A stretch of 64,000 bases of DNA from Minisyncoccota bacterium (lineage in GTDB: Bacteria; Patescibacteriota; Minisyncoccia; Phycocordibacterales; Phycocordibacteraceae), in NCBI GenBank assembly GCA_022842945.1, contig JALHOO010000003.1:14458-78457 (forward strand), in the 5' to 3' direction. The notes under the pieces were generated by a model. It was given only the letters and a program-made list of their open reading frames with translations. It did no database searches and was not told where the DNA came from. Made by a program: the position numbers and the translations under genes. This document shows positions 9,997-50,037 of the stretch, one piece after another; position 1 is the first letter of the stretch, and each line of letters begins with the position of its first letter.

Positions 9997-11553
9997 TTAG
10001 CGAATGCCGTCTGCGCTTGCCACTTGCACGAGCTCGCCCTCTGCAAGACCGCGCGCGTCTGCAACGATGCGCAGCTCTTTAGGAAGATCGGTGCGCACTT
10101 CAATGCGGTCTCCACGTACCTCGCCAACCTCAACCGCGTGTGCAACAAGACGCTGGTCTTCGCCAACGGAGAACACGATGCGGTCTCCTGCGCGGAGCTT
10201 AACTGAAGCCAACGGCAGAAGGATCGGACCCTCTGCAACTACTTCAGTTTCTTCTCGCGGAGCGAGGTCTGGAAGAGCGATATGTACAGACTGTCCGTTT
10301 ACGAGCTCGCTCGCTCCCGTAACGGCTACGTGTACCTCAATCTGCTTGGTTATAGGGTCGAGAGCCGGAGCGATAGAGGTAATAACGCCTTCGTACTTCC
10401 CGTCAACGGTAGCGCGCCCTCCTGCAGCAAGAAGATCGCGGTTGTCTTCAGAGACGTACGCCACAATCTCAAGCGCACCGTTCTGTGCAACGGTTGCGAC
10501 GTGCTGAAGTGGCGTTACGTAGTCGCCAACACGAATCGGAAGGAAGTTAATCTGCCCGCCAATAGGTGCACGTACAACCGTGCGCTCAAGGGCCGCCTGT
10601 GCGCCGCGCAGGGCACCGAGCGCCTGTTTGATAGATGCGTCCGAACTTGCGGTTGCGGACACGGTACCGGTGCGTAGTCCCGCTCGAGCTGAAGTAATGC
10701 TCGAAAGTACGCCATTAACACCTGCGCGTGCGCTTGCGAGTCCTGCCGTCTGTGCGGCGGTAACTCTTGAGTCACGCTGGTTAGCGGCATCAGCAAGCTG
10801 GTTTAGGAAGGTTTGTATCTGACGGGTGATTCCTTCAGCTTCATTCAAAAGTGTCTCTGGAGTACGACTGTTTGCGCTCGCAAGACCGGTTTCGTAGGAA
10901 GCCATGAGGGTATTGAGACGTGCACGCTCGCGTGAGAGGCGGTTTGCGGTGTCTGCACCAGGATAGATCAAGAGATCGGGTCCAACCGGAGTAGGGCCTC
11001 CAAAGAAGGTGTCGACATCGTTCTCAAGAAGCGTGTCGAGTGTAGTGAAGATACTGCGGTAGGAGTCACGTGCGGACGCTTGAGTGTCGGGGAGAGACTG
11101 TGCATTGCGGCTTGCGATAGCAGCGTCGTACGCGCCTTCAGCCTGAAGCACCACTGCGCGCTCTGCAGCGTTCTCAAGTTCTGCAATAACGGAGCCCGCC
11201 GGGACGGTGCCGCCAATACGTGCGCGCACACTGCGGACGGTACCGCCATTCTGTGCAAGGAGGTTTGCCTCGGTTACGGAGCGAACCGTACCTATAAGGT
11301 CAACACTGCCACCGGTTCCTGAAAGCTCTCCAACAGTTGCGAGTGTTACAAAGCGACCCTCTGCGCGAGTGTCGTCTGACTTCTCTCCGTTGAGGAGCAT
11401 GAATGCACCAATAAGGAGTACGAGAAGAAGAAGGGCAATACCAACTCTCTGCCAGAGGGGTAGGGCAGCGTAGAGAGCCCAGAGCGCTTTGGCGTTCGCT
11501 GGGAGAGAGGTAAGGAATGTGCGCACGCGGGAAAGAATCGATGTAAATGACAT
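9997..11553 (-). CDS. RND efflux periplasmic adaptor (membrane fusion protein, HlyD family), unusually long
   Basis: N-terminal TM anchor, long coiled-coil region, then beta-barrel/lipoyl-like C-terminus (RAPIGGQINFLPIRVGDYV...). It lies immediately upstream of and co-oriented with the RND permease. Confidence 0.7.
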   Translation of the reverse strand: MSFTSILSRVRTFLTSLPANAKALWALYAALPLWQRVGIALLLLVLLIGAFMLLNGEKSDDTRAEGRFVTLATVGELSGTGGSVDLIGTVRSVTEANLLAQNGGTVRSVRARIGGTVPAGSVIAELENAAERAVVLQAEGAYDAAIASRNAQSLPDTQASARDSYRSIFTTLDTLLENDVDTFFGGPTPVGPDLLIYPGADTANRLSRERARLNTLMASYETGLASANSRTPETLLNEAEGITRQIQTFLNQLADAANQRDSRVTAAQTAGLASARAGVNGVLSSITSARAGLRTGTVSATASSDASIKQALGALRGAQAALERTVVRAPIGGQINFLPIRVGDYVTPLQHVATVAQNGALEIVAYVSEDNRDLLAAGGRATVDGKYEGVITSIAPALDPITKQIEVHVAVTGASELVNGQSVHIALPDLAPREETEVVAEGPILLPLASVKLRAGDRIVFSVGEDQRLVAHAVEVGEVRGDRIEVRTDLPKELRIVADARGLAEGELVQVASADGIR

Positions 11554-15899: not shown

Positions 15900-17687
15900 A
15901 TGGAAATCCGAAACATCGCCATCATCGCGCACGTGGACCACGGCAAGACCACGCTGACTGATGCCATCATGAAGCAGACCGGTGCTGCCGCTGAGGGTGT
16001 GTCTATGGACTCAAACGCGCTTGAGCACGAGCGTGGTATCACCATCTACTCGAAGAACACCTCTATTGAGTACAAGGGAACCAAGATCAACATCGTGGAC
16101 ACCCCAGGCCACTCCGACTTCGGTTCTGAGGTTGAGCGCGTGCTTCGCTCCATCGACTCCGTGCTTCTCATTGTTGATGCGCAGGAGGGTCCAATGCCAC
16201 AGACTCGTTTCGTACTTAAGAAGTCTCTTGAGCTTGGACTGAAGCCAATCGTAGTGCTCAACAAGATTGATAAGCCAGCGGCAGACCCGGCGAGGGCAGA
16301 AGACCAGGTACTTGAGCTCTTCCTAGAGCTTGGTGCGTCTGACGAGCAGTCTGACTTCACGACCGTATACGCTATTGGGCGAGAGGGTGTTGCTATGAAG
16401 AAGCTTGATGACGAGCGTAAGGATCTTACGCCGCTTCTTGACGTTATTCTTGAGCACGTTGCCCCTACCTCAAGCGACGAGAGCGCGGCTAAGCCACTTA
16501 AGCTCCAGACCTTCAACCTTGCCTACGACAACTTCCTCGGACGTCTTGCTATTGCGCGCGTGTACGAGGGGGTGGTTAAGGCGGGACAGGCCGTTATGGT
16601 AAAGAAGCCGGACGGCACAAGTCGGAACGCTAAGATCACCAAGCTCTTCACCTTCAAAGGTCTTGAGCGTGTGGACGTTGCAGAGGCAGGTGCTGGAGAC
16701 ATTGTTATTGTTGCTGGTATTCCGGACGCTTTCATCGGCGAGACCGTTACGACTGACGCGTCAGTTGAAGCAATGCCTGCTATCGCAATTGATGAGCCAA
16801 CCATCACCGTTAACTTCCTCGTTAATAACTCTCCGTTTGCCGGACGTGAAGGAAAGTACGTAACCAGCCGTCAGCTCCGCGAGTATCTTGAGCGCGAGCT
16901 TGAGGTTAACGTGGGACTTAAGGTGGACTTCGTATCTCCTGACGCCTTTAAGGTGTCCGGACGTGGAGAGCTCCACATCGCTATTCTCCTTGAGAACATG
17001 CGCCGTGCTGGGTACGAGATGCAGGTCTCTCAGCCACAGGTAATTATCCGCGAGGAGGAGGGCCAGAAGCTTGAGCCATACGAGGAGGTTACTATCGACA
17101 CGCCTACCGAGTTCCAGGGCTCTATTATCGAGCGCCTCGGCACCCGTGCGTTCGTCCTTCAGAACCTCGTGCAGGAAGGGGACACTGTCCGCCTCACGCT
17201 TGAAGGTCCTACTCGTGGACTCCTTGGATACCGCAACCAGTTCGTGGTGGACACAAAGGGCGAGGGAATTCTCTCTACACGCGTTATCGGCTTCAAGCCA
17301 TACGCAGGCGAGATCAAGAAGCGCCAGGTTGGTTCCATGATCTCCATGGCAAGCGGCAAGGCACTCGGCTACGCTCTCTGGAGCATGCAGGAGCGCGGCG
17401 TGCTCTACATCATTCCCGCTACGGAAGTGTATGAGGGTATGGTTGTGGGCAACACCTCGAAGGGAGAGGAGATGGTGGTTAACCCAACCAAGGGAAAGAA
17501 CCAGTCCAACGTCCGTTCGTCTGGTATGGACGAGGCTATCAACCTCGTACCTGCCTTTACGCTCACCATTGAGCGCGGACTTGAGGTTATGTCTGACGAC
17601 GAGTACCTCGAGATCACACCGCTCTCAGTACGTCTTCGCAAGCAGGGTCTCACCGAGACCGATCGTGCGAAGAGCAAGCGATCCTAA
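15900..17687 (+). CDS. typA: Translational GTPase TypA/BipA
   Basis: 595 aa. N-terminus MEIRNIAIIAHVDHGKTTLTD with a G-domain and EF-G-like domains. The protein is collinear with BipA. Confidence 0.9.
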   Translation: MEIRNIAIIAHVDHGKTTLTDAIMKQTGAAAEGVSMDSNALEHERGITIYSKNTSIEYKGTKINIVDTPGHSDFGSEVERVLRSIDSVLLIVDAQEGPMPQTRFVLKKSLELGLKPIVVLNKIDKPAADPARAEDQVLELFLELGASDEQSDFTTVYAIGREGVAMKKLDDERKDLTPLLDVILEHVAPTSSDESAAKPLKLQTFNLAYDNFLGRLAIARVYEGVVKAGQAVMVKKPDGTSRNAKITKLFTFKGLERVDVAEAGAGDIVIVAGIPDAFIGETVTTDASVEAMPAIAIDEPTITVNFLVNNSPFAGREGKYVTSRQLREYLERELEVNVGLKVDFVSPDAFKVSGRGELHIAILLENMRRAGYEMQVSQPQVIIREEEGQKLEPYEEVTIDTPTEFQGSIIERLGTRAFVLQNLVQEGDTVRLTLEGPTRGLLGYRNQFVVDTKGEGILSTRVIGFKPYAGEIKKRQVGSMISMASGKALGYALWSMQERGVLYIIPATEVYEGMVVGNTSKGEEMVVNPTKGKNQSNVRSSGMDEAINLVPAFTLTIERGLEVMSDDEYLEITPLSVRLRKQGLTETDRAKSKRS

Positions 17688-18477: not shown

Positions 18478-19290
18478 TTACTCGGCCCTTTGTTTGCGGT
18501 GCAGTTCAATATTTATCGAACCGCTCGACTCTTCCACCGTCCAATTCTGAAGGTATTTCTTGAACATGGCAGAAAAGAGACGGGAGCGTGCGCGTGACCG
18601 ATCCCTGCTGTTTGGGTGGGCTCCGAGAAAATGCTCACCAAACAGATCTTTATACATCTCGAAAAGCCGACCACCCTCGTATGCTCCAGAAAATGATAGG
18701 AGTTCTTCGCGGGTATAGACCGTGTCTGGATGGGTAAGGATCTTATCTATACATGCCTTAATATCATCAACTGAATATGAAACTCCTGAAGGGCTACTTT
18801 CAATACGTTGTACTAGGCCGTTAGCGTAGTCTGTAAAGCTTTCAACAAAGGCAGCTCTCGTTCGGAAAAGTTCCTCGCTACTTTCGGGGTCGAGGTTAGT
18901 TGTGGCAAAGCCATATCCTTCCGTCTCTGTTTGCAGGGTAAAGGAATGTGGACTGAATTGGCCCTGTGCCAGTCTGAAACGATATGCGTGCCCACCGATG
19001 GTTTTTGAAAGAATGAACCGATGATAGGTTTTTTCCTCCGGATCATTCCAATACGAAGTACGGTAATGCACAATCGAACCCTCAGCCGGATCGGGCCTGT
19101 CTTTACCTTGGTATACACCCTCGTCCTCAATAATGGGGAATCGCTCAAGGTTCTCCTGCGATTCTTGAGATGCAGTAGGCATCTTACGACGCTCCGTGGG
19201 CAATTTCTCGCTCATGACCTCATTAAAGCACGTGAGTAGCTCTAGTCCTGAGTTTAAAATCCCCATAGACACTTGCAAAAAAGCCCACAT
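18478..19290 (-). CDS. Hypothetical protein (AT-rich gene)
   Basis: 270-aa ORF with no recognisable motifs. The true start may be the internal MSEKLPTERR. Confidence 0.45.
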   Translation of the reverse strand: MWAFLQVSMGILNSGLELLTCFNEVMSEKLPTERRKMPTASQESQENLERFPIIEDEGVYQGKDRPDPAEGSIVHYRTSYWNDPEEKTYHRFILSKTIGGHAYRFRLAQGQFSPHSFTLQTETEGYGFATTNLDPESSEELFRTRAAFVESFTDYANGLVQRIESSPSGVSYSVDDIKACIDKILTHPDTVYTREELLSFSGAYEGGRLFEMYKDLFGEHFLGAHPNSRDRSRARSRLFSAMFKKYLQNWTVEESSGSINIELHRKQRAE

Positions 19291-19463
19291 CTGCTATACT
19301 ATTTCCACAACGGTTATTCCACGGTTTGTCGTCTTGAAGAGTTATTCAAGACCAGACACCGCGCTACGGCGCACGTCTTGAAACTCTCGAGAACGGTTGA
19401 GTCAGATTCCTGGCTACTTACACAAACCGCACGCCCTACAGCGTGCACTAGCATTCCAAATAC

Positions 19464-20918
19464 ATGAATTCAAAGAATGACACGCGTTCGCGCGGTCCTC
19501 GTCGTGAGGGTGGCGCACCGCGTCCACGTTCTGGCGGACGTCCAGCTCCTATGAGCTCGGCATACGAAGCGGGCATGAAGTTCGCTCTCGATAATGGTTT
19601 CAAGCGCCCTGCAACAGCGGCGGTTGAGTTTAAGCGTTCCCGTCCCTCGGGAGGCGCTGGATCTCGCGGTCCTCGTCGCGATGCTGGACCGTCTCGTAGC
19701 CCTTCGCGTGGAGGCTCGACAAGCTCACGCGGTGGCTACTCTCGCCCACAGTCTGGCGGTTCTCGTTCTGGAGGTGGACGCTCAGGCGGACGCAACTTCC
19801 AGGAGATGAACGTCGATCTCTCAAAGCTTGTTAACAAGGCAACGGCTCCAGCTGAAGTTGAGGTATACGTACCAACACACACCTTCGCAGAGTTCGCCGT
19901 TGACGAGCGTTTGAAGACAAACATCGCAAACAAGGGCTACGTTGCGCCAACTCCTATCCAGGACCAGTCTATTCTTCCTATGCTCGCAGGACGCGACGTA
20001 GTGGGAATCGCTAACACGGGTACCGGAAAGACCGCAGCATTCCTTATTCCTCTCATCGACAAAGTACTCAAGTTCCGTGCCGCGGGTACAGACGAGCGTG
20101 TGCTCGTTATGGTGCCAACGCGTGAGCTTGCTATCCAGATTGAGGACGAGTTCTTCGGCTTCGCTAAGGGTCTTGGTGTTAACTCCGTAACCTGTGTCGG
20201 AGGCGCAAACATCGTGCCGCAGATTCGCGTGCTTAAGCGCAACCCAGCCTTCGTTATCGGAACCCCAGGACGTCTTAAGGACCTTATGGAGCGCCGCGAG
20301 CTTAACCTTGAGCACTTCGGTACGGTTGTACTCGACGAGGCAGATCGCATGCTCGACATGGGATTCATCGACGACATGCGTTTCATCATGTCGAAGATGC
20401 GCAAGGAGCGTCACACACTCTTCTTCTCAGCTACAATGTCCCGCGACATTCAGGCACTTATCGGTGCGTTCTTGAACGATCCGGTACATGTGTCTGTTAA
20501 GACTCGTGAGACGTCGCACACCATTGATCAGGACGTGATCAGGGTGCATCACACTCAGAAGTTCGACAAGCTCGTAGAGCTTCTTAAGGACGAGAGCTTT
20601 GACAAGGTACTCGTGTTCGGACGCACCAAGCATGGCGTAGAGCGCCTTGCGAAGGATCTCCGTTCGTCTGGTATCCGTGCAGACTCTATCCACGGGAACA
20701 AGACGCACTCTGCCCGCCAGAAGGCACTCATCGCCTTCAAGCGTGGCGACGCGCGTGTGCTTACGGCAACTGACGTTGCGGCACGTGGTCTTGATATCTC
20801 GGGCGTCTCGCACGTGATCAACTACGACCTCCCGTCGACTTACGAGGACTACACTCACCGTATCGGCCGCACTGGCCGCGCGGGGAAGGCGGGCATGGCC
20901 CTTACCTTCATTCCGTAA
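19464..20918 (+). CDS. DEAD-box ATP-dependent RNA helicase with ~115-aa RG/SG-rich N-terminal extension
   Basis: Q-motif, GTGKT, PTRELA, DEAD (VLDEADRMLDMGF), SAT and HRIGRTGRAG motifs. The N-terminal low-complexity stretch is RSRGPRREGGAPRPRSGGRP...GGSRSGGGRSGGRN. Confidence 0.85.
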   Translation: MNSKNDTRSRGPRREGGAPRPRSGGRPAPMSSAYEAGMKFALDNGFKRPATAAVEFKRSRPSGGAGSRGPRRDAGPSRSPSRGGSTSSRGGYSRPQSGGSRSGGGRSGGRNFQEMNVDLSKLVNKATAPAEVEVYVPTHTFAEFAVDERLKTNIANKGYVAPTPIQDQSILPMLAGRDVVGIANTGTGKTAAFLIPLIDKVLKFRAAGTDERVLVMVPTRELAIQIEDEFFGFAKGLGVNSVTCVGGANIVPQIRVLKRNPAFVIGTPGRLKDLMERRELNLEHFGTVVLDEADRMLDMGFIDDMRFIMSKMRKERHTLFFSATMSRDIQALIGAFLNDPVHVSVKTRETSHTIDQDVIRVHHTQKFDKLVELLKDESFDKVLVFGRTKHGVERLAKDLRSSGIRADSIHGNKTHSARQKALIAFKRGDARVLTATDVAARGLDISGVSHVINYDLPSTYEDYTHRIGRTGRAGKAGMALTFIP

Positions 20919-23424: not shown

Positions 23425-24186
23425 CTATAAAATCTTATACAACACTTCGCAGTACTCGAAGTCTGTTCCGAACTGCTCTGATTGTCGTCGAGAGAACTCC
23501 ATGATTCGCGAAGAAAGATCCCCGCCTACAAAAAGCTCAAGTGGCAGTATTTGAGACTTATACATCATTATCGCTTCAGTCTTCTTCAACACTTGCTCTT
23601 TTAAAAGAGGGGCGACTACCGTCTCTGCATTCGCTACGCTTGTTATGTGATCTGCGCTGAGCTTTTCTTGAGGAAGGGTGCAGGCGTACGGCAAGTCCTG
23701 ATATAGGAAGCAATGGACATTTCTGGATACTAAATGCGGAATAGCAGCATGCAAGACCTGCTTTATAAGTCGGTGATCCTGATGCAATTCCAGTCCAGGC
23801 GCATAGAGGTTAAGCTCCCTTTGTCCGCATCCTTCTAGGAAGGAAAGAAGGCCCCGAAGGAGAACTTCTTGAAGTTCTCCTTCGCTTGATCTGCGAAATA
23901 TACTGCTTCGGTATTGCTGGTCTAAGTGTCCCAGATTAACAATCTGTTCCTGCGGAACTCCAAGGAATTCAAGAGCCTGGCTATTTTCTTCTACTCTGGC
24001 TTTGTGCGCTTGATTGCTGTTAAGAAATCCAGAAGAAAGATCCCAGGGAGTGATATGAAGAGTGTCAGGCTTGCCGGCAAAGAATGTTATTACCGTTGAG
24101 ATGGCGCCTTCTTTCGCCAAGAGTCCGCCCAGAGAAAGGACAGCATCATCAAAGTGGGGTGAAAGTATAATGTTATATCTTTCCAT
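23425..24186 (-). CDS. Cassette gene (inverted): PIG-L/LmbE family N-acetylglucosaminyl deacetylase
   Basis: N-terminal ILSPHFDDAVLSLGG (the HxDDxxxG zinc-binding motif) and the downstream HQDH motif. Start is set at MERYNI. Longer starts at 24216 and 24228 would run into repeat copy 4. Confidence 0.7.
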   Translation of the reverse strand: MERYNIILSPHFDDAVLSLGGLLAKEGAISTVITFFAGKPDTLHITPWDLSSGFLNSNQAHKARVEENSQALEFLGVPQEQIVNLGHLDQQYRSSIFRRSSEGELQEVLLRGLLSFLEGCGQRELNLYAPGLELHQDHRLIKQVLHAAIPHLVSRNVHCFLYQDLPYACTLPQEKLSADHITSVANAETVVAPLLKEQVLKKTEAIMMYKSQILPLELFVGGDLSSRIMEFSRRQSEQFGTDFEYCEVLYKIL

Positions 24187-24218
24187 ATCTAGAAGTATAT
24201 ATCTTTCCTTCTGCATGG

Positions 24219-24250
24219 ACTCCAACATCGTCCCAGACTGCCAGCAAAAT
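24219..24250 (+). repeat. Cassette-boundary element copy 4
   Basis: ACTCCAACATCGTCCCAGACTGCCAGCAAAAT. Confidence 0.85.
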
Positions 24251-24268
24251 TAGCCGTATACTTAGAGA

Positions 24269-24718
24269 ATGATCCCTCTCAAGAGGCTTTTATATACGTT
24301 CATCCAACCATTCAGAAAGCTGTATTGGTTTATGGTACGGCCGCATACCTTAGGAGTTAAATGCCTAATCGAACACGAGGGAAAATTTCTTTGCATACGC
24401 AATTCGTACTATCCATATTGGACGCTCCCTGGAGGGGGAGTTGGCAAGAACGAACTACCTAAACAAACAGCCCGAAGGGAGACGCTAGAGGAAGTAGGAA
24501 TTGATGCAGCAGACTGGAAGGAAATAGGAGAGTACCAAAGCAGGCGCGAGCATAAGAAAGATGTTGTGCACTGCTTCTACGTAGAGGTAGAGAGTCCGGA
24601 ATTTCAGATTGATAACGACGAAGTAATTGAAGCTCGTTGGTTCAGTGAAGACGAGATTCCTGAGAACCGATCGTTTGCTGTGGAGGAGGTCCTAGCTCTG
24701 TATGAGGGATCAAGATAA
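24269..24718 (+). CDS. Cassette gene: NUDIX hydrolase
   Basis: Nudix box GGGVGKNELPKQTARRETLEEVGI. Confidence 0.8.
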   Translation: MIPLKRLLYTFIQPFRKLYWFMVRPHTLGVKCLIEHEGKFLCIRNSYYPYWTLPGGGVGKNELPKQTARRETLEEVGIDAADWKEIGEYQSRREHKKDVVHCFYVEVESPEFQIDNDEVIEARWFSEDEIPENRSFAVEEVLALYEGSR

Positions 24719-24740
24719 AGGTTCCAGACTGCCAGCAATA
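24717..24740 (+). repeat. Cassette-boundary element copy 5 (deletion variant)
   Basis: AAGGTTCC-AGACTGCCAGCAATA. It lacks AACATCGTCCC. The deletion is bounded by TCCA microhomology. Confidence 0.8.
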
Positions 24741-24763
24741 CTTTACAGGCTATAATCTCAGTA

Positions 24764-25420
24764 ATGGATTTCGTCGATGCCCTGGCAATAAAGCTCTGGA
24801 ACTATCACCACGTAGGTCATAAGTGGGAGAAAGCGGACATCATCTTTGCGCTCGGAAGTCATGATCTAGGCGTAGCGCGCTTTGCAGCACTCCTGTTCCA
24901 GGAGGGGTGGGCTCCGCTTCTGGCATTTTCGGGAGGCATCGCACATCAGGGTGATTCGTTGCGAACTGGCTGGGACAAGTCAGAGGCTGAGATGTTTGCT
25001 GATGTAGCGATGAGTGTGGGTGTCCCTAAGGAAGAAATCCTTATTGAAGACAGGGCAACAAATACGGGTGAGAACTTCGCGTTCATGGAGCAAGTGTTTA
25101 AAGACCAAGGACTGAATCCCAAGAAAGTAATTCTTGTACAGAAGCCTTACATGGAACGTAGGGCACTTGCCACGGCGCTCGCGCATTGGCCACAAAGAGA
25201 ATTCATTTCAACCTCTATGCCCATATCATTTGAGGACTATACGAGCGGGGATATACCGAAAGATCGCATCATTAACATCATGGTTGGCGATCTGCAAAGA
25301 ATTAAGCTCTACGGGGAAAAAGGATTCCAGGTTCCTCAGGAGATTCCAGAGGACGTATGGGATGCATACGAGAAGTTGGTTCAGTTGGGCTACACCTCAC
25401 ATTTGGTTACTGAAGCATAA
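24764..25420 (+). CDS. Cassette gene: DUF218 (YdcF/SanA-like) domain protein
   Basis: ADIIFALGSHDLGVARFAALLFQEGWAPLLAFSGG matches the DUF218 core. Confidence 0.65.
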   Translation: MDFVDALAIKLWNYHHVGHKWEKADIIFALGSHDLGVARFAALLFQEGWAPLLAFSGGIAHQGDSLRTGWDKSEAEMFADVAMSVGVPKEEILIEDRATNTGENFAFMEQVFKDQGLNPKKVILVQKPYMERRALATALAHWPQREFISTSMPISFEDYTSGDIPKDRIINIMVGDLQRIKLYGEKGFQVPQEIPEDVWDAYEKLVQLGYTSHLVTEA

Positions 25421-25453
25421 AGGTTCCAACATCGTCCCAGACTGCCAGCGATA
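25419..25453 (+). repeat. Cassette-boundary element copy 6
   Basis: AAAGGTTCCAACATCGTCCCAGACTGCCAGCGATA. Confidence 0.9.
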
Positions 25454-25469
25454 ACGCTATACTAGCTAC

Positions 25470-26030
25470 ATGCAATATAAGGCCCTTGTGTTCGACTTCT
25501 TTGGAGTGGTTTGTTCTGAAATATCTCCGTTCTGGTTCGCAGAGCACCTCCCGGATCGCGCAAAAGAACTTAAGCACCAATACCTGCGTCCTGCGGATCA
25601 AGGTGAAGTATCGCAAGAAGAACTATTTAATCAGCTCGCTATGTTGTCCAACCTTCCTGCGGAAGAAATTGAGCAGGACTGGAACGCACGTGCGGTTTTC
25701 AATACAGAGCTCGTAAGCTTCATAAGAGAATTGAAGGGTGAGTATAAACTTGGCCTTCTTTCAAACAGTATGGCTCCGCTCTTTCATACGCTCGCAGAGA
25801 AGGTTAATGTAGCCGACTTATTCGAACAGGTAGCGGTATCGAGCGAGATTGGTCATGCCAAGCCTGAACCAGAAGCATTTCAAGCAATACTGGCAAAGTT
25901 AAGCGTGCTTCCTGAGGAGGCACTAATGATTGATGACAATCAGGTTAATCTTGATGGTGCGAGGGAGATAGGAATGCCAGGATTCCTTTTCACATCAGTT
26001 TCGGGACTGAAGGCTGCATTAGGGAAGTAG
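25470..26030 (+). CDS. Cassette gene: HAD-superfamily hydrolase (subfamily IA)
   Basis: Motif I ALVFDFFGVV (DxD-type), motif II LLSNS, and a C-terminal DD motif. Confidence 0.75.
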   Translation: MQYKALVFDFFGVVCSEISPFWFAEHLPDRAKELKHQYLRPADQGEVSQEELFNQLAMLSNLPAEEIEQDWNARAVFNTELVSFIRELKGEYKLGLLSNSMAPLFHTLAEKVNVADLFEQVAVSSEIGHAKPEPEAFQAILAKLSVLPEEALMIDDNQVNLDGAREIGMPGFLFTSVSGLKAALGK

Positions 26031-26038
26031 GTTCCAAC

Positions 26039-26072
26039 ATCGTCCCAGACTGCCAGCAATAAAATCTGATAC
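26039..26072 (+). repeat. Cassette-boundary element copy 7
   Basis: AGGTTCCAACATCGTCCCAGACTGCCAGCAATAA. Confidence 0.9.
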
Positions 26073-26081
26073 AGTCTAAGC

Positions 26082-26741
26082 ATGCAAAAGGCTTTTATAT
26101 TCGACATGGACGGCGTACTCGCAAATACTGAACCCTATTGGGAGGCCGCTAAAGCCGAGGTCTTCAACGAATTCTTAAATCCATTGGTAGTACAGAAGAT
26201 GGGTCCAACCATGGGCCTCAACATGGATAGTATCTACAATCTCGCTGTAGAATGCGGCGCGTCTTTAGATAAGGAGGCGCTCATCAGCGCCTTTTATGCT
26301 AAAGCACACTGGGTGTATGAGAACGCTGCATTAACGCCTAACGTAGAAGAGTTGGGAAGAGCTCTTCAGCGAATGAACTACGCCATTGCCATCGTATCCG
26401 CATCTCCAACAGATTGGATGAGTACAATTGTTGGCCGGCTTCCATTTCGAGAGTCTATTCGCCATCTAATATCTTTGGAAGACCGAAAGGATCTGGCGCA
26501 CAAGCCTGCGCCTGACGGATATCTTGAGGCTATGAGGGAGCTGGGTTCTGGACCCGAGACAACTATTATCCTAGAGGATTCAAATACCGGCATCGCGTCG
26601 GCAAAAGCTTCCGGTGCCTATACGATCGGACTGCGAGAGAATCTCATTGAGGGATACGTACAGGAAGGCGCCGATACATACGTTGAGAACATGGGAGATG
26701 TACTGCAGATTCTAGAGAATCGAGAAAAGGCCTCGGTTTAG
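26082..26741 (+). CDS. Cassette gene: HAD-superfamily hydrolase, beta-phosphoglucomutase-like
   Basis: AFIFDMDGVLANTEPYW (DxDG motif I), IVSAS motif II, and a C-terminal EDSNTGIASAKASG. Confidence 0.8.
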   Translation: MQKAFIFDMDGVLANTEPYWEAAKAEVFNEFLNPLVVQKMGPTMGLNMDSIYNLAVECGASLDKEALISAFYAKAHWVYENAALTPNVEELGRALQRMNYAIAIVSASPTDWMSTIVGRLPFRESIRHLISLEDRKDLAHKPAPDGYLEAMRELGSGPETTIILEDSNTGIASAKASGAYTIGLRENLIEGYVQEGADTYVENMGDVLQILENREKASV

Positions 26742-26742
26742 G

Positions 26743-26775
26743 AAGGTTCCAACATCGTCCCAGACAGCCAGCAAT
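26743..26775 (+). repeat. Cassette-boundary element copy 8
   Basis: GAAGGTTCCAACATCGTCCCAGACAGCCAGCAATA. Confidence 0.9.
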
Positions 26776-26787
26776 AATATATAAAAA

Positions 26788-26826
26788 AGCGCCTCCTGCT
26801 GGTACATGCAGTTGGCGCTTTCGCTT
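26788..26826 (+). terminator. Hairpin terminator inside the gene-less unit
   Basis: AGCGCC-TCCTGCTGGTACATGCAGTT-GGCGCT followed by TTCGCTTC. Confidence 0.5.
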
Positions 26827-26916
26827 CAGGTGTCTGATGGCCCAGACATTTTCCCCTCAGTCGCTGGTTCTGATAGGCCCCAGTAAGCCATCACCGAATG
26901 AACGACGATGCTAGAA

Positions 26917-26986
26917 CTATACTAGCAGGATATATTTATTTGTCAAGTACAAAAAGTTCTAACATCGTCCCAGACCGCCAGCAATA
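26917..26986 (+). repeat. Cassette-boundary element copy 9, extended version (~70 bp)
   Basis: Shares an extra upstream segment CTATACTAGCAGGATATATTTATTTGTCAAGTACAAA with copy 10. The core is AAGTTCTAACATCGTCCCAGACCGCCAGCAATA. Confidence 0.85.
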
Positions 26987-27044
26987 ACAAAAGCCGCTCA
27001 AAATAAAAGCTAAACGGCTTTTGTCTTTGAACGGCTTAGGGGAA

Positions 27045-27527
27045 TTAACCCCAATAGCTGCAGAGGAGAAGTTCAGGTTCGCGGAACTCGATTCCGGCAC
27101 GTTTGCAGAACGCAGCCAGTTTCTCGCGCCACTCGGGTTTGACCTCAACGCCCTGTCCGAAGGAAAGTGGCGAGCCTCGACTGCTCACGTGGTCGCAGTC
27201 CTTGACGGCGAGAATCCACATGGGGTATTCGCCCGAGCAGTGCTCGACCAGGGTAACACCGAATTCCTCCTCCAGATTCCTTTTCTTGGCCCAGTAATCG
27301 GACCAAGTCTGGGCATACGCAGGATCGGAGTCGTACTTCTCCTTATCGAAGGAGTCTGGCTCCCGGAGACCGACGAGGTTTGCAAGGAAATCCTCGAATT
27401 CCATCGACTCCTCGTCGTCGTCGCCAGGCAGCGTCAGCCATTCGGGTGATTCGCCCTCGACTTCGTCCCCATCTTCATTGTGGATTCGAAAGCCGTAGCA
27501 GAGAATTCCGTTCGTTGAGACGCCCAT
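27045..27527 (-). CDS. Cassette gene (inverted): acidic hypothetical protein
   Basis: 161 aa starting MGVSTNGILCYGF. The gene is GC-richer than its neighbours and is flanked on both sides by extended repeat copies. Confidence 0.5.
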   Translation of the reverse strand: MGVSTNGILCYGFRIHNEDGDEVEGESPEWLTLPGDDDEESMEFEDFLANLVGLREPDSFDKEKYDSDPAYAQTWSDYWAKKRNLEEEFGVTLVEHCSGEYPMWILAVKDCDHVSSRGSPLSFGQGVEVKPEWREKLAAFCKRAGIEFREPELLLCSYWG

Positions 27528-27581
27528 GGCATTTCTCCCTTTAGCTTGTGATAGATCAATTGGCCACAAATAGGCTTGGTA

Positions 27582-27652
27582 CTATCATAGCACGATATTG
27601 CTTATTTTGTCAAGTACAAAGGTTCCAACATCGTCCCAGACTGCCAGCAATA
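27582..27652 (+). repeat. Cassette-boundary element copy 10, extended version
   Basis: CTATCATAGCACGATATTGCTTATTTTGTCAAGTACAAAGGTTCCAACATCGTCCCAGACTGCCAGCAATA. Confidence 0.85.
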
Positions 27653-27670
27653 TTTGGTACACTTTCAATT

Positions 27671-28132
27671 ATGAAATGGGACATTCCGCCAGATATAAAG
27701 ATATATGAAGCGCTGGGAGCAGTTGCCGATGAGCGAGTTAAGGCAGACGAAAATCGAGCCAAAGTTTATTCCTCAAGTGGTAATAAATTCTACGACGTAG
27801 AATATGACGCAGACTCGGGGTCAATCATGACGAACGATAATGGATCGTATTGGAAGGGGTATCTTGGTTATCCAGCCGTTGCGTACTTAATGTCGCTCAG
27901 GGTACTAACATACAACTCTAATCTCGGGAGTTTAATGCAGGGAATCGCCTGGAAGGATCTCAATACCAAGTACAAGAATGATTTTGAGAAGACGCTTGAT
28001 TTCATACTTAAAGACCTACCTATAGGGGCTAAACAGGAGCTTCAGGATTATGTATCCCAGGTTCAGGGAGAGATAGTAAGTCTCGACCTAAGCCTCTTAG
28101 GTAAGAAAACTCTACCGCCGCAGGGATACTAG
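27671..28132 (+). CDS. Cassette gene: hypothetical protein
   Basis: 154-aa ORF starting MKWDIPPDIKIYE, 19 nt after repeat copy 10 and 6-7 nt after a TACACT box. Confidence 0.5.
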   Translation: MKWDIPPDIKIYEALGAVADERVKADENRAKVYSSSGNKFYDVEYDADSGSIMTNDNGSYWKGYLGYPAVAYLMSLRVLTYNSNLGSLMQGIAWKDLNTKYKNDFEKTLDFILKDLPIGAKQELQDYVSQVQGEIVSLDLSLLGKKTLPPQGY

Positions 28133-28171
28133 AAAACCATATACCTTCCTTGCCTCCTAGCTTTAAAAATC

Positions 28172-28214
28172 ACACCTCCAGCTGGTAAGGCTGGAGGTGG
28201 TCGTCTTGTTTTCA
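28172..28214 (+). terminator. Bidirectional hairpin terminator between convergent cassette genes
   Basis: CACCTCCAGC-TGGTAAG-GCTGGAGGTG followed by GTCGTCTTGTTTTC. Confidence 0.6.
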
Positions 28215-28406
28215 GGCATGGCGTGCAATCAGCCCAAGCTCGTGTTGAGAAAGTCCCAGCTGTTCTGCAGTGAGACCGCGTTTGAGATCCTTCTCCAGTC
28301 TTACAATACGAACCGAAGTCTTGTCTCCTGAATGGAGAGCCTGAAGAAGTTCTTGGGCGTTCTCTTTCGCAGCAGCCAGTACGTTTGGCGTAATTGATTT
28401 GGCCAT
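28212..28406 (-). CDS. Cassette gene (inverted): small hypothetical protein (64 aa)
   Basis: MAKSITPNVLAAAKENAQELLQALHSG... on the minus strand between the terminator and repeat copy 11. Confidence 0.4.
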   Translation of the reverse strand: MAKSITPNVLAAAKENAQELLQALHSGDKTSVRIVRLEKDLKRGLTAEQLGLSQHELGLIARHA

Positions 28407-28453
28407 AGTTCTTGTCCCGTGTTGCTCCTAGACAAAACCTAGCACAGTTGCAT

Positions 28454-28487
28454 AAAGGTTCCAACATCGTCCCAGACACCCAGCAAT
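28454..28487 (+). repeat. Cassette-boundary element copy 11
   Basis: AAAGGTTCCAACATCGTCCCAGACACCCAGCAAT. Confidence 0.9.
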
Positions 28488-28506
28488 CATCTGCTCAGGT
28501 ATATAC

Positions 28507-28804
28507 TATAGAAATTATGGAAACCCTCATTGCGAAGATAGTTCTTTGGGCAATAGCGATGTCTATGGTGCTTTTGCTGATAAGAGCCGCAAGAATTGGA
28601 AGAATTCCGGCACTCCGTCCACCTGGAGTTTATTACAAGGGCAAGGAAGGGCGGGTTGATGTGCACAAAGAGCCAATTCTGTTTTGGTTTAATTGCACTG
28701 TGATATTGCTGGTTACTTTAATTGCTCTTGGCATAATCTTTGAGGTACCGTTCTCAATCTTTGATTTTGGAGCAGATGCTGTTGAAGCACTCAATTTGAA
28801 TTAA
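28507..28804 (+). CDS. Cassette gene: small two-TM membrane protein
   Basis: METLIAKIVLWAIAMSMVLLLIRAA...ILLVTLIALGIIFEV. The stop TAA abuts repeat copy 12. Confidence 0.45.
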
Positions 28805-28838
28805 AAAGGTTCCAACATCGTCCAAGACTGCCAGCAGA
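28805..28838 (+). repeat. Cassette-boundary element copy 12 (last)
   Basis: AAAGGTTCCAACATCGTCCAAGACTGCCAGCAGA. Confidence 0.85.
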
Positions 28839-28946
28839 CTTTCTAGTGAGGCCATTTTAGGTGCATTAGCTAGTGGAGGCGCTCTTTCTTACTCAGTCTC
28901 ACTAAAAACAGGTGGTTTAATTTTTCTTGCACGCTATACTTAGCAT

Positions 28947-29147
28947 ATGGAATCACTCATTTCTTTCGTATCAGCACTCACACTCACCCTTACCACGTGG
29001 TTGGGTCTCGTCGAGCAATCAGTAACGAACATTACTGATCTTGGAGCTATTGATGCAACTCTAAATCAACTTACCGAACTGGGTTCTTCGACAATTGAAG
29101 AGCTGGTTGTGGGCGAAGAGGGAAGTGAACCGACCGAAGGGAATTAA
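28947..29147 (+). CDS. Small hypothetical protein (66 aa) downstream of the last repeat copy
   Basis: Preceded by CGCTATACT-N6-ATG, like the cassette genes. Confidence 0.35.
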   Translation: MESLISFVSALTLTLTTWLGLVEQSVTNITDLGAIDATLNQLTELGSSTIEELVVGEEGSEPTEGN

Positions 29148-29339
29148 TTTCTATAGCGTCGCGGCATGATGCATGGGTGTTGGTTGCTGAGGCCATGCTA
29201 AATCGAGTGTGTTAGCTCGAAGCGTCTAATCATGCGAAGCGGTGGGAAGTCCTCTCTTTCAGAATAGCTAGATTTTCTCGAGTATCATCCGAGACTAAAC
29301 ACAAAAGCCGGGTTCCAAGGAATCCGGCTTCGAGCATTG

Positions 29340-29558
29340 CTACGGACGAGTCTCAGGAACGCGAGGGAGGGCGAAGGGTTCATTGCTGAACCGGATGTCG
29401 CCTGCACTTGCGGCAAGGTCGGTTGCGACACTTGCAGAGACTTGTGCACCCCGAAGGAATGCAATAGCGGTAGCTTCAATTTCTGAAAGGACCCCGGGAA
29501 GCAGAAGCTTGAGGACGATGATGACAATCCCGAGTCCTATGGCTTTGGTAAATGCCAT
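29340..29558 (-). CDS. Small hydrophobic protein (72 aa)
   Basis: MAFTKAIGLGIVIIVLKLLLPGVL TM helix. A hairpin GCCGGGTTCC-AAGG-AATCCGGC lies just downstream at 29301-29330. Confidence 0.35.
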   Translation of the reverse strand: MAFTKAIGLGIVIIVLKLLLPGVLSEIEATAIAFLRGAQVSASVATDLAASAGDIRFSNEPFALPRVPETRP

Positions 29559-29755
29559 ACGCGTAGACGTAAGTGGATAAGGGAACGGAGATCTGGAACA
29601 GATCTCGCATCAATCGTCTTTCAAGGTCCTGGCTCCCTCTACTTATAAGAACACTATCTCCTGGGAATAGGTTTCAGGAGCGGGTAGACGAGCTAGTACA
29701 CGCGGGCGTATAGTACCGGAGGATAAGAGGGCATAGTGCCCAGGAGGATATAGAA

Positions 29756-30262
29756 ATGGGAGTGCGAGGTGTCACACATGCTGCTGGGTGGACGCCAGAT
29801 AGGCTCGACTCTCTTAAGAAACTTTGGCTTGCAGGCAAATCTGCAAGCCAGGTCGCAGAAGAGCTTGCTGGCGGAGTTACAAGAAGTGGCGTTTTAGGAA
29901 AGGTTCGTGATCTAGGTCTTTCTGGAGATGGGGCGCCGACGCGGTCTACCCGCTCGTCGTTCAAGCCGAAAAAGCGGGCACCACAGAAACCTTCGACGGC
30001 CGATAAGTCATCAGAGGTTCCAGCAACGCCCGCAAAGCCTCCCGTCCCGGAATTGCCCGGGACAGCGAACATCGAGACGCTCGGCGCACACATGTGCAAG
30101 TGGCCTATCGGAGACCCTGACAACACGTCCTTCTCCTTCTGTGGGAGAAGGACAGACGGTAGGTGTGTGTACTGTGTTGAACACGCACGCGTGGCATACC
30201 AGCCCAAAAGCAAGAATCCAAATTCGAACCGGGTGTATGTACACCCATCTCACTATCGTTAA
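29756..30262 (+). CDS. GcrA-like cell-cycle regulator family protein
   Basis: N-terminal WTPDRLDSLKKLWLAGKSASQVAEELAGGVTRSGVLGKVRDLGLS and C-terminal CKWPIGDP...FCG..C.YC.EH match the conserved N- and C-terminal blocks of the GcrA family (PF07750). Confidence 0.7.
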   Translation: MGVRGVTHAAGWTPDRLDSLKKLWLAGKSASQVAEELAGGVTRSGVLGKVRDLGLSGDGAPTRSTRSSFKPKKRAPQKPSTADKSSEVPATPAKPPVPELPGTANIETLGAHMCKWPIGDPDNTSFSFCGRRTDGRCVYCVEHARVAYQPKSKNPNSNRVYVHPSHYR

Positions 30263-38950: not shown

Positions 38951-40867
38951 CTAGACTCCGATGAGTACCGGGATAACCATAGGCGCTTTGTTGGTGCGCG
39001 TGAAGAGGTATCCAGCCATCGTGTCCGAGAGCGCGTTCTTCACGAAGTCGAGGTCAACCGGGTTCATGCCCTCAGTTGAGTCCTCAACCGTCTTCTTAAT
39101 AAGAAGGCGTGCTTGGTTCAGCATGTCCTGGTTCTCACGCAGGTATACGAACCCGCGGGAGATGATATCCGGAGACTTGCGGAGCTTTCCAGTCTTCAGG
39201 TTAACGGTGGCGATGATAACGAACATACCATCCTTCGCGAGCGCAAGACGATCGCGGATAACCACTTCCTGGAGGTCGCCGATAGAGAAGCCATCCACCA
39301 CGAGTGGGGTAGAAGGAACCTTCTGCTTGTGGATCTCCATGCGGGTACCCTGGTCTACGATGTCGATAACGGTACCGTTGTCAGCCACAACGATAGACTC
39401 GCGCGGACGCCCTGCCTGCTCAACGGCCTTTGCGTGGCTTGCGGTCATCGAGTAGTAGCCGTATGCAGGCATGAAGAACTTTGCGTTCACCTGCTGGTTA
39501 ATCCAGATAAGCTCGCCCGTGTTTCCGTGTCCGGTTGAGTGCACGTCGCTTGAGCGGTAGTGGATGAGGGATGCACCGCTGCGATACAGATTGTCCTTCA
39601 AGCGCTGCACAGAGATCTCGTTTCCAGGAATAACCGAAGACGAGAGGACAACGGTATCGCGCGGATTAAGCGTAATGGACTTGTGCTGCTTGGTTGCGAT
39701 GCGCATGAGGGCCGCAAACTCCTCTCCCTGAGCACCGGTTGAGAGGATAACTATCTTGTCTGGTGGATAGTCTCCAATCTCCGCAGCAGAGATAATCGTC
39801 TCCTTCTTAACCTTAAGAAGGCCGGTCTTCTGGGCAATCTCGAGGTTGGTCTTAATGGAGCGACCTTCGGTAACAATCTTCTTGTTGAGAGACTCTGCGA
39901 TCTCGATGATACGGACCATGCGTTCGAACTGCGAGGCGAAGGTTCCGATAATGAGACGGCCCTTAACGGTCTTAATGATCTCTTCGAGCGTCTCATGTAC
40001 TTTGCGCTCAGGCACCGAGAAGCCGTCACGCTCAGCGTTCGTTGAGTCTGCAATGAAGAAGAGGTTCTTCTGTGCCGCAAGCGCACCCCACTTCTTCTGC
40101 TCAGCCGCGGTTGGAATACCGTTCTCGTGGTCGAGCTTCAAGTCTCCGGTTGCGATAACGTTTCCGTAGGGTGTCTCTACCGCAATACCCATAGAGTCAG
40201 GAATAGAGTGCGTCACGGGGAAGAACTGAACCTTGGTTGAACCAATGGTCATGGTTGAATTCGGATCAACCGTAATCACATTAAGTTCTGGTTGGTCAGG
40301 GTACTCTTCCTGACGCTTCTTGATCATTACGGCAGAAAGGTTCTGCGTATAGATAGGGGGATTGCCCATGCGCTCCATAAGGAAGGGGATACCGCCGATG
40401 TGGTCGAGGTGGCCGTGCGTGATGAAAATACCGCGAATACGGTCCTTGTTAACCTCAAGGTACTTGGTGTTTGGAAGAACGTAGTCGACGCCTGGCTGTG
40501 TATCCTCAGATACGAACTGGAAGCCTACGTCAAAGACGAAAATGTCGCCATTGGTTTCAACGGTAAACATGTTACGTCCCACTTCCTCAACACCGCCAAG
40601 AGGAACGATACGGACCACGTCCTTGCCCGGAGCTGCCGGGAGGTACTCGGCAACCTTCTTCTGGATGCCTTCGCCTCCTCCGGTGCTTCGCATAGGGCGA
40701 GGACCGCCGGAACCCGGACGTCCTGCGTTGGTGCGTCCGCGACCACGGCCGCGACCCGCGTCACGTGGGGGACGTGGCGTGTCGCTCTGCGCACGCTCGC
40801 GAGGAGCGCTTGCAGGAGTTTGAGAACGAGGGCTTGGCGCCGGAGCTGGCGCAGGTGCTGCTGACAT
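38951..40867 (-). CDS. rnj: Ribonuclease J with ~70-aa Pro/Arg/Gly-rich N-terminal extension
   Basis: Metallo-beta-lactamase motif HGHLDHIGG, beta-CASP and C-terminal domains. The N-terminus is MSAAPAPAPAPSPRSQTPASAPRERAQSDTPRPPRDAGRGRGRGRTNAGRPGSGGPRP. Confidence 0.85.
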   Translation of the reverse strand: MSAAPAPAPAPSPRSQTPASAPRERAQSDTPRPPRDAGRGRGRGRTNAGRPGSGGPRPMRSTGGGEGIQKKVAEYLPAAPGKDVVRIVPLGGVEEVGRNMFTVETNGDIFVFDVGFQFVSEDTQPGVDYVLPNTKYLEVNKDRIRGIFITHGHLDHIGGIPFLMERMGNPPIYTQNLSAVMIKKRQEEYPDQPELNVITVDPNSTMTIGSTKVQFFPVTHSIPDSMGIAVETPYGNVIATGDLKLDHENGIPTAAEQKKWGALAAQKNLFFIADSTNAERDGFSVPERKVHETLEEIIKTVKGRLIIGTFASQFERMVRIIEIAESLNKKIVTEGRSIKTNLEIAQKTGLLKVKKETIISAAEIGDYPPDKIVILSTGAQGEEFAALMRIATKQHKSITLNPRDTVVLSSSVIPGNEISVQRLKDNLYRSGASLIHYRSSDVHSTGHGNTGELIWINQQVNAKFFMPAYGYYSMTASHAKAVEQAGRPRESIVVADNGTVIDIVDQGTRMEIHKQKVPSTPLVVDGFSIGDLQEVVIRDRLALAKDGMFVIIATVNLKTGKLRKSPDIISRGFVYLRENQDMLNQARLLIKKTVEDSTEGMNPVDLDFVKNALSDTMAGYLFTRTNKAPMVIPVLIGV

Positions 40868-40967
40868 AATAGTTTTAATTGTTAGGTATGTTAATGGTAT
40901 AGGTGCACACCAGAATGGTTTGAGTGCGCAGTAGGCAGACAGGAGGAACGGTCCTCTGGTCTATCTA

Positions 40968-47687: not shown

Positions 47688-47721
47688 CTGTGCTTTATCT
47701 GAAATCCGTACCATTAGTTTA
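47688..47721 (+). terminator. Perfect 14-bp-stem hairpin (htpX terminator candidate). Its 3' arm contains the first ATG of the homing-endonuclease ORF
   Basis: GAAATCCGTACCAT-TAGTTT-ATGGTACGGATTTC followed by TTCGCTT. Confidence 0.5.
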
Positions 47722-48462: not shown

Positions 48463-48497
48463 CACAGATTAGTGATTAACATTAGTGTCACGCACAT

Positions 48498-50035: not shown

Positions 50036-50037
50036 GG

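Follow-up and report, generated by a model that had tools for sequence, protein, structure and literature searches.

Two enzymes of RNA turnover encoded in a 64,000-nucleotide stretch of a Minisyncoccota bacterium genome (contig JALHOO010000003.1; the whole stretch is called the window below), a DEAD-box RNA helicase (19464..20918, + strand) and an RNase J (38951..40867, − strand), carry coding N-terminal tails whose composition, charge and length are conserved throughout their clade and which are predicted to be disordered and hold short conserved islands. A preliminary description of this DNA had singled out low-complexity RG/SG-rich N-terminal extensions on the two proteins; both prove to be basic and R/G/S/P-rich, and the ranking of the window bears the observation out. 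When 189 open frames of at least 100 codons, taken from all six frames, are scored over 40 amino acids (aa) at a time, the helicase and RNase J tails occupy the first and second rank for arginine plus glycine (R+G), each with 0.525, a value that has a binomial chance of 1.6e-8 at the background of 14.3 %.

Both enzymes are readily recognised from their catalytic cores. The helicase (484 aa) has a CshA/RhlE-like core according to Pfam, NCBIfam and solved homologues, with the Pfam domains DEAD at residues 163-331 (1.5e-45) and Helicase_C at 365-474 (9.4e-32), and the motifs that place it among the superfamily 2 DEAD-box proteins can be read directly (TPIQ, ANTGTGKT, PTRELA, DEAD, SAT and HRIGRTGRAG). 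Its NCBIfam scores are 408 bits for CshA, 343-352 for RhlE, RhlE1 and RhlE2 and 248-296 for the RhlB models, all of them below the equivalog cut-offs. RNase J (638 aa) contains Lactamase_B (residues 97-252), RNase_J_b_CASP (302-427, 1.4e-41) and RNase_J_C (536-637, 2.7e-22), carries the HGHLDH motif, passes TIGR00649 with 488 bits against a cut-off of 400 and finds RNase J1 (3zq4) as its best match in the Protein Data Bank (1.2e-131). Solved homologues of the helicase (CshA, Hera and eIF4A) align only from helicase residue ~133-140 onward and those of RNase J only from residue ~78-85 onward, so that both N-termini are true extensions. Among the deposited chains, CshA and Hera begin at the core, and the RNase J chains start within ~26 residues of it, with the exception of that from Helicobacter pylori.

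Extensions of this kind could in principle be an annotation artefact, with translation beginning at internal methionines (M30, M38 or M115 of the helicase, M59 of RNase J) and the RG-rich regions forming untranslated leader; true start codons downstream of the RG-rich regions were what the preliminary description had named as the refutation of its claim. Several pipelines do annotate helicases of 370 aa and RNase J proteins of 539-589 aa, neither ATG is preceded by a Shine-Dalgarno (SD) sequence, and a sigma-70-like promoter match overlaps the RNase J ATG. The missing SD sequence was rejected as an argument against the annotated starts, as the window is SD-poor overall and an SD-like match of at least 4 nt precedes just 8 of its 35 genes. 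The promoter-like match was taken as chance, since it is not kept at three syntenic loci of related genomes (L003-L005), whereas a hairpin ~40 nt upstream of the ATG is conserved. Each ATG is the first in-frame start codon of its open reading frame (ORF). In homologue sets of 120 helicase and 120 RNase J clusters, built from Patescibacteria/Paceibacterota proteins, the extension is annotated in 109 and 97 clusters, respectively, and the remaining 11 and 23 are annotated from internal Met codons with the tail dropped. Five of these ‘tail-less’ annotations were checked on the DNA, namely the 370-aa helicases P0013 and P0034 (loci L001 and L002) and the 553-583-aa RNase J proteins P0140, P0164 and P0215 (L003-L005), and all five encode the full tail in frame upstream, from a conserved ATG. 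The checked cases are gene-caller truncations and represent a systematic annotation error. At L005 a spurious 85-aa antisense gene has been called over the tail (9699-9956).

The pattern of substitution points in the same direction. The ratio of non-synonymous to synonymous substitution rates (dN/dS) is 0.06-0.10 in the helicase tail (core 0.03-0.08) at saturated dS values of 1.1-2.4, and 0.26-0.30 in the RNase J tail (core 0.025-0.075), again with saturated synonymous sites; all indels in both tails are in frame, and the extreme N terminus of RNase J is conserved in 97/97 orthologues. Codons inside the conserved tail motifs vary synonymously, so that selection acts on the tail peptide, and the motifs were rejected as candidate mRNA elements. 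The sequence context of the start codons is also telling: start leaders in the window are AT-rich, with a mean AT of 0.56 over 35 genes (0.52 for the helicase and 0.80 for RNase J), while GC-rich surroundings (AT 0.24-0.40) mark the internal Met codons. On these sequence comparisons the artefact explanation is effectively refuted and the tails are translated.

The helicase tail is a composite structure. Residues 1-115 comprise 20 % G, 17 % R, 17 % S and 10 % P with a net charge of +17, but the label ‘low-complexity’ given to the tail earlier fits only two RG segments, A (residues 1-29) and B (61-107), and not the conserved island (30-60) or the linker (108-140). Segment A (19464..19550, + strand, as for all helicase features) is basic, R/G/P-rich and predicted to be disordered, and its start is conserved among orthologues as MNSKND, MDQKN or MNQSN. 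The island, MSSAYEAGMKFALDNGFKRPATAAVEFKRSR (19551..19643), was delimited from the alignment, its synonymous variation and an AlphaFold2 model built with a 50-sequence alignment, in which a helix of 12 residues (32-43, SAYEAGMKFALD, 19557-19592) is predicted with a predicted local distance difference test score (pLDDT) of ~70. This is the sole helix in the tail, and pLDDT falls below 50 at residues 1-28 and 52-113. A33, G37 and A41 of the island are invariant among the aligned orthologues and F40 is present in at least 90 %; in the model the three small residues form a stripe on one face of the predicted helix, and this A-x3-G-x3-A arrangement may provide a packing or recognition surface. Segment B (19644..19784) is RG/SG-rich (G 29 %, S 24 %, R 18 %), indel-rich across orthologues, and holds an RGG-x4-RGG element. 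It is followed by a lineage-specific conserved linker that leads from the tail into the RecA1 core, GGRNFQEMNVDLSKLVNKA (19785..19883), in which E114 is invariant and M115, D118, S120, L122, N124, K125 and A126 are each conserved in at least 90 %.

The island is a property of one subclade. The helicase clade comprises at least three N-terminal classes: among the 80 orthologues an AYEAGMKFA island is found in 33, and two further subclades have another short motif before the RG stretch, MATTYI[VR]RKNSRNDL (35) or MQ[VI]GRWxHQ (9). Because the N-terminal motif differs between subclades, the basic RG character is the constant feature of these tails and the short motifs are interchangeable.

The RNase J tail was initially taken for an RG tail of ~70 aa, a description that needs correcting on length, composition and order: it spans ~82 aa, proline and alanine are as abundant as arginine and glycine (residues 1-70: P 19 %, R 17 %, G 17 %, A 14 %, net charge +9), and an (AP)n cap comes first. 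The cap (residues 1-14, MSAAPAPAPAPSPR, 40826..40867, − strand, as for the other parts of this gene) has an invariant A6 P7 A8 P9 A10 core and varying synonymous sites. It is present in all 97 full-length tails and is confined to RNase J in a 1.48-Mb sample of related sequence described below. An R/P/G-rich segment predicted to be disordered (15-67, 40667..40825) follows, which includes GRGRGRGR; a basic RxIRRxLxR motif seen in 44/97 RNase J orthologues has been lost from the window copy. Directly before the catalytic core lies a conserved junction, IQKKVAEYLPAAPGK (68-82, 40622..40666), with the pattern KKxxEYLPAAPGK, invariant Y75 and P77, and [DE]Y[LFYI]P in 88/97. Residues 1-73 are modelled with pLDDT of ~30-34. 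Over the 97 full-length tails, length ranges from 72 to 104 aa and net charge from +6 to +17, with R+G at 0.31 and P+A at 0.33. The hairpin upstream of the gene (UGCGCAC...GUGUGCA, 40904-40930, − strand) is shared with L003 and L004 and is unrelated to the leader element of the helicase. Directly downstream of RNase J lies a RelB antitoxin/YafQ toxin pair (38336-38611 and 38615-38890, both +), YafQ being a ribosome-dependent mRNA interferase. The pair is missing from the syntenic loci L003-L005 and is thus a strain-specific insertion.

Predicted disorder and conservation, both of which the preliminary description had left to be checked, hold for the two tails. Low pLDDT is matched by the charge-hydropathy (Uversky) plot, which assigns each tail to the disordered class, and every RNase J cluster of full length (97/97) and every helicase locus in which tails were called from DNA (80/80) keeps its tail. 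The latter are the best 80 loci from a scan of relatives in 552 genomes, one genome per species, and Kaiserbacteria, Paceibacterota and Parcubacteria are among their names. Their tails measure 53-233 aa (median 87) with a mean R+G of 0.40 and, after trimming of over-extended start calls, a net charge of +9 to +17. Pooled over 78 tails, arginine makes up 18.2 % and lysine 2.7 % (background 6.3 and 4.5 %), that is, a 6.7-fold excess of R over K compared with 1.4-fold in the background, and glycine 22 %. The mean tail has ~5 aromatics, 2.4 RGG and 7.9 RG/GR. Thandapani et al. 2013 reportedly define a di-RGG as RGG-x0-4-RGG and a tri-RG as RG-x0-4-RG-x0-4-RG. Such spacing is found in the helicase at SRGGSTSSRGGYS (RGG-x4-RGG) and in RNase J at GRGRGRGR, and the earlier likening of the tails to eukaryotic RGG/RG RNA-binding regions is in this respect sound.

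Within the material sampled, the tails are specific to the two enzymes. A scan for segments of at least 40 % R+G, as had been proposed, took in the window together with 85 related loci, which amount to 1.48 Mb and yield 446 families from 1,540 non-overlapping ORFs, a set skewed to helicase neighbourhoods and not equivalent to a whole proteome. It returned 82 copies of the helicase, 5/5 of RNase J, a small protein of KGG type and singletons whose composition is that of a wrong reading frame, so that no real family in this sample other than the helicase and RNase J has such tails; none was found on the sampled BipA, LepA, class I tRNA synthetase or PIF1-type helicase. The KGG-type protein, a basic protein of 101 aa with a KGG/GG-rich C terminus encoded directly upstream of the helicase leader at L031 (9428-9733, +), is the only other plausible real ORF flagged. 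The possibility that the helicase tail is a module shared with other proteins was rejected after a profile of it, searched against 1.84 billion representatives, gave 3 hits, of which two are fragments from the N terminus of helicases in this very family and the third is a chance repeat protein (E = 3e-4). The tail is thus family-specific, although the search says nothing on its spread within the family, where orthologues collapse into few 50 % clusters. The suggestion that the two enzymes bear the same tail type therefore stands for composition but not for descent: the motifs differ (helix island in one, (AP)n cap in the other), the helicase profile finds no other family, and 18 kb separate the two genes, which are read from opposite strands. 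By sequence, the tails have a common composition and no common ancestry, and these comparisons lend no support to the earlier hint at a shared interaction or localisation mechanism.

Low-complexity sequence of this sort could also arise neutrally, by replication slippage in GC-rich DNA, and be tolerated as a functionless expansion. The RG segments are indeed indel-rich and variable in sequence, dN/dS of the RNase J tail is raised, and tail DNA has a higher GC content (helicase 0.62, RNase J 0.70) than core DNA (0.55 and 0.53). Against this, Tandem Repeats Finder detects no tandem DNA repeat in the sequence encoding the helicase tail; in that encoding the (AP)n cap it reports a single weak one (12-nt x2.2), and an origin by slippage was rejected for this reason. 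Moreover, every examined orthologue keeps its tail, charge varies little and length stays within bounds, dN/dS remains far below 1, arginine is preferred over lysine well beyond background, and conserved islands are embedded in the tails. We regard neutral expansion as very improbable.

The 5′ leader of the helicase gene carries a second conserved feature, at the level of RNA. A promoter-like site, TTGCAA-16-TG-TATACT (19273..19300, +), with an extended -10 conserved in orthologous loci, places the predicted transcript start at ~19306-19308, and the leader that follows is ~93 % identical between the window and L001 despite saturated synonymous sites. Covariance models describe a ~92-nt three-way junction (P1, P1b, P2 and P3; 19308..19399, +) that begins at the predicted 5′ end of the transcript. 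P1 (CAAC.GUU.CUC/GAG.AAC.GUUG) pairs the extreme 5′ end, P2 reads GUCUUGAR/YUCAAGAC, and P3 (CAGGC/GCUUG) has, in close relatives, a GC stem capped by a GNRA loop. A model built from 10 sequences identified 56 sites and a second-round model found the element at 66/83 helicase loci, all sites lying immediately upstream of the helicase and none elsewhere in the 1.48 Mb. In a 67-sequence alignment, which was itself fitted to the model, 93.2 % of cells pair as against 82.4 +/- 0.5 in shuffles, and 25/28 pairs are changed on both sides as against 11.8 +/- 1.7. The observed values were reached by 0/500 shuffles, and slid registers pair at 30-50 %. RNAalifold on the raw MAFFT alignment gave one 5-bp hairpin only, the structure being resolved with the covariance-model alignment.

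At gathering thresholds the 4,227 models of Rfam 15 match only RNase P and three tRNAs in the window, and none matches 19200-19520 with E up to 1; the literature searched likewise held no counterpart of the leader. By class of helicase tail, the element is present in 36/36 (class A), 29/36 (class B) and 0/9 (class C). Co-regulation of the two enzymes through this motif was rejected, as neither the sequence block nor either covariance model matches anything near RNase J. The leader can be regarded as a candidate for a new class of cis-regulatory RNA, and an autoregulatory, helicase-sensing role is plausible by analogy with plant DRH1, possibly one in which a sequestered 5′ end is exposed to RNase J. 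Closer to the gene, 17 nt upstream of the ATG, lies a further hairpin, GCACGC-cctaca-GCGTGC (19429..19446, +), with compensatory changes in orthologues (GCATGC/GCATGC in L001, GCACGG/CCGTGC in L002); many other loci have a different GC hairpin in the same place.

We tentatively propose the following account of how the tails might work, and consider it fairly probable as a whole. Both are genuine, translated and strongly basic RGG/RG-type appendages, predicted to be disordered, that arose independently on the two enzymes in a Kaiserbacteria-like lineage of Paceibacteria within the candidate phyla radiation (CPR) and are kept by selection; their most likely role is that of RNA tethers, possibly with a capacity for condensation. 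Each tail would work chiefly in cis, tethering RNA non-specifically and thereby raising RNA affinity and in turn ATPase and unwinding activity, or nuclease activity, on structured substrates. As the tail is multivalent and rich in Arg, Gly and aromatics, it may also drive RNA-dependent clustering or condensation. The islands, that is, helix 32-43 of the helicase and the (AP)n cap and EYLPAAP junction of RNase J, would most likely act in recognition, as short elements that engage either a partner or the core of the same enzyme. The helicase terminates with RecA2 at residue 484 and has no C-terminal extension, so its N-terminal tail could stand in for the basic C-tails of RhlE, CshA and DeaD. 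Precedents for a tether exist in the N-terminal intrinsically disordered region (IDR) of Pseudomonas aeruginosa RhlB, the C-terminal IDRs of RhlE, the extension of H. pylori RNase J and the eukaryotic RGG helicases.

Several points weigh against this account. Composition and analogy are the grounds for the proposed function, a low pLDDT does not prove disorder, and the R+G scan covered helicase-linked neighbourhoods. Evolution of the RNase J tail is ~5-10 times as fast as that of the core and the window copy has lost RxIRRxLxR, so that constraint is weak on part of this tail. The helix island is restricted to the 33 orthologues of one helicase subclade, the others having other N-terminal motifs, and the promoter-like match over the RNase J ATG, which orthologues do not keep, must also be counted here.

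The same islands can be read differently, as docking sites for a direct RNase J-helicase contact, much like the short linear motifs (SLiMs) in the disordered C terminus of RNase E; in such a ‘minimal degradosome’ the RG stretches would provide flexible linkage and bind RNA. Short conserved islands within variable IDRs are what such a scaffold would look like, the small-xxx-small stripe of the helix suits tight packing, both tails occur together in every genome that shows both genes, including the distant L051 and L066, and a complex of RNase J with the helicase RhpA exists in H. pylori (PMC3592473). In that complex, however, the RNase J extension is dispensable for helicase binding (PMC3592473). 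In the present clade the two sets of islands do not co-vary, the (AP)n cap being universal and the helicase island present in 33/80, and there is neither operon linkage nor a common leader element. We think a docking scaffold unlikely. An alternative destination for the helicase tail, and perhaps for that of RNase J, would be the ribosome or pre-ribosomal rRNA, in biogenesis or quality control instead of mRNA decay. The helicase lies just downstream of the ribosome-associated GTPase BipA (TypA; 15900-17687, +) in an order, BipA, a small DUF5670 protein and the helicase, that is kept in L001 and L002, and this synteny hints at a link to ribosome assembly. Bacterial DEAD-box proteins with basic tails, such as SrmB, DeaD, RhlE and CshA, work in ribosome assembly, and in H. 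pylori translating ribosomes have the RNase J/RhpA complex bound to them (PMC3592473). The synteny is nevertheless only suggestive, the protein has no rRNA-specific domain such as the RNA recognition motif of DbpA/YxiN, and an RG composition predicts non-specific RNA binding, which makes ribosome targeting doubtful.

A more far-reaching scheme, which we put forward as a long shot, would join the tails and the leader RNA into one system. Paceibacteria might possess a compact, IDR-based RNA-decay circuit that is independent of RNase E, with RNase J and the helicase co-assembling on RNA as a degradosome-like condensate by means of their independently evolved RG tails and the lineage-specific recognition motifs in these, and the helicase regulating itself through its leader. 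The three-way junction would sequester the 5′ end of the helicase mRNA, and unwinding by tail-recruited helicase would expose that end to the 5′-to-3′ exonuclease activity of RNase J. If true, the circuit would be a bacterial counterpart of the plant DRH1/‘DEAD’-element feedback loop, with specificity provided by an RGG/RG IDR.

The remainder of the window holds several features that stand apart from the two enzymes. The ORF at 57715-58428 (+) scores 51.6 bits (cut-off 28.7) with OMP_b-brl, an outer-membrane beta-barrel family, and matches MipA as well; to our knowledge CPR bacteria are generally thought to lack an outer membrane, and the match is unexpected for that reason. A resistance-nodulation-division pump is encoded by an AcrB-like (6884-9985) and an HlyD-like gene (9997-11553) and is conserved in L002. 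One ORF of LAGLIDADG type stands free at 54640-55470 (+), its 3′ end overlapping the start of LepA (55454), and a second, weak LAGLIDADG-like ORF (47721-48392, +) adjoins the tRNA-Ser gene. Structural RNAs comprise a class A RNase P RNA (50026-50350, −, 129.8 bits) and tRNA-Ser(GGA) (48378-48463), tRNA-Arg(CCT) (58861-58932) and tRNA-Phe(GAA) (59318-59393), the tRNAs all on the + strand. The region ~24000-30000, with DUF218 and two HAD-hydrolase genes, has a GC content of 0.47-0.49 as against ~0.52-0.55 elsewhere and may be an acquired island.

The CPR/Patescibacteria form a large uncultured branch with tiny genomes whose RNA metabolism is barely known. Disordered basic tails on two of their RNA-decay enzymes would extend to a very distant lineage the rule that bacterial enzymes of this kind rely on basic IDRs, and would add a second independent N-terminal IDR on RNase J, a feature that the literature ties to Helicobacter. 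Short (~80-110 aa) and naturally diverse, the tails could offer a minimal system in which to study how RG grammar and embedded motifs affect activity and condensation. There is a practical side as well, since in ~10-20 % of public annotations an internal Met codon has been taken as the start and the gene is cut short.

The tails had also been called unusual for bacteria, which holds in relation to the characterised bacterial homologues but has to be qualified, as a basic N-terminal IDR has already been described for Type II RhlB (PMC13462270) and an N-terminal IDR for H. pylori RNase J (PMC10700544). Perhaps the closest parallel to the helicase is the P. aeruginosa Type II RhlB, in which the N-terminal IDR both brings about liquid-liquid phase separation that depends on RNA and raises RNA binding, ATPase and unwinding activity (PMC13462270; Hausmann et al., NAR 2026), the phase separation being antagonised by RNase E (PMC13462270). 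Both helicases carry a disordered basic extension of ~110 aa before the RecA core; in the present protein residues 1-107 are basic, with pLDDT below 50 except in helix 32-43. The tail of Type II RhlB is P/R/K-rich, whereas that of the helicase is R/G/S-rich with RGG boxes, and the latter differs further in its conserved helix island, its CshA/RhlE-like core and its CPR lineage. Membership of Type II RhlB was rejected on the NCBIfam scores, in which the RhlB models rank below CshA and RhlE, and the likeness would be one of working, not of family.

For RNase J the nearest case is that of H. pylori, where full activity, though not helicase binding, requires the N-terminal extension (PMC3592473) and where the IDR has been termed distinctive of the Helicobacter lineage (PMC10700544). 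Here, too, a long extension predicted to be disordered, 82 residues up to the first one alignable to solved structures, precedes the core; the H. pylori enzyme works with a DEAD-box helicase. The two extensions are unrelated in sequence, since phmmer aligns the window protein to 8cgl only from query residue 81 and chain residue 141. They also differ in length (~82 against 132 aa) and in the (AP)n cap and RG repeats, and in the present clade the helicase carries a tail as well. By its sequence, the CPR enzyme represents an independent second lineage of RNase J with an N-terminal IDR.

Disordered basic appendages are otherwise known from RhlE1/RhlE2, CshA, DeaD and SrmB, where they influence RNA binding, unwinding, phase separation and interaction with RNases, and the C-terminal IDRs of RhlE behave much like the N-terminal IDR of P. 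aeruginosa RhlB (PMC11260450). The appendages of these bacterial helicases are C-terminal and often Lys-rich, while that of the present helicase is N-terminal and Arg/Gly-rich, an arrangement that recalls the eukaryotic RGG helicases. DDX4/Vasa, LAF-1 and Ded1/DDX3X have an N-terminal RGG-rich IDR followed by the DEAD core, with arginine far in excess of lysine, abundant G and S, and interspersed F/Y. The CPR helicase has the same topology and grammar, and RGG/RG elements of eukaryotic type are present in both enzymes, as RGG-x4-RGG in the window helicase and as four consecutive RG in RNase J, although the bacterial tail is much shorter and of independent origin. In plants, DEAD-box helicase genes contain a structured RNA that acts as a sensor of helicase activity in negative feedback, and DRH1 recognises the one in its own gene through its C-terminal RGG/RG IDR, on which specificity depends (bioRxiv 10.64898/2026.01.23.701338). 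The C-terminal scaffold of RNase E, whose Arg-rich segments bind RNA and which underlies the bacterial ribonucleoprotein bodies (BR-bodies), resembles the RNase J tail in being a disordered part of the main decay nuclease in which Arg-rich stretches occur beside short conserved motifs, but it belongs to another enzyme family, sits at the opposite terminus and is about ten times as long, and the motifs of RNase J are candidate SLiMs only. A literature search returned no report on the tails of CPR RNase J or helicase. N-terminal IDRs on RhlB and on RNase J are thus a known kind of element, and what is new is that in this CPR lineage both enzymes bear RG tails, that of RNase J being unrelated in sequence to the H. 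pylori extension.

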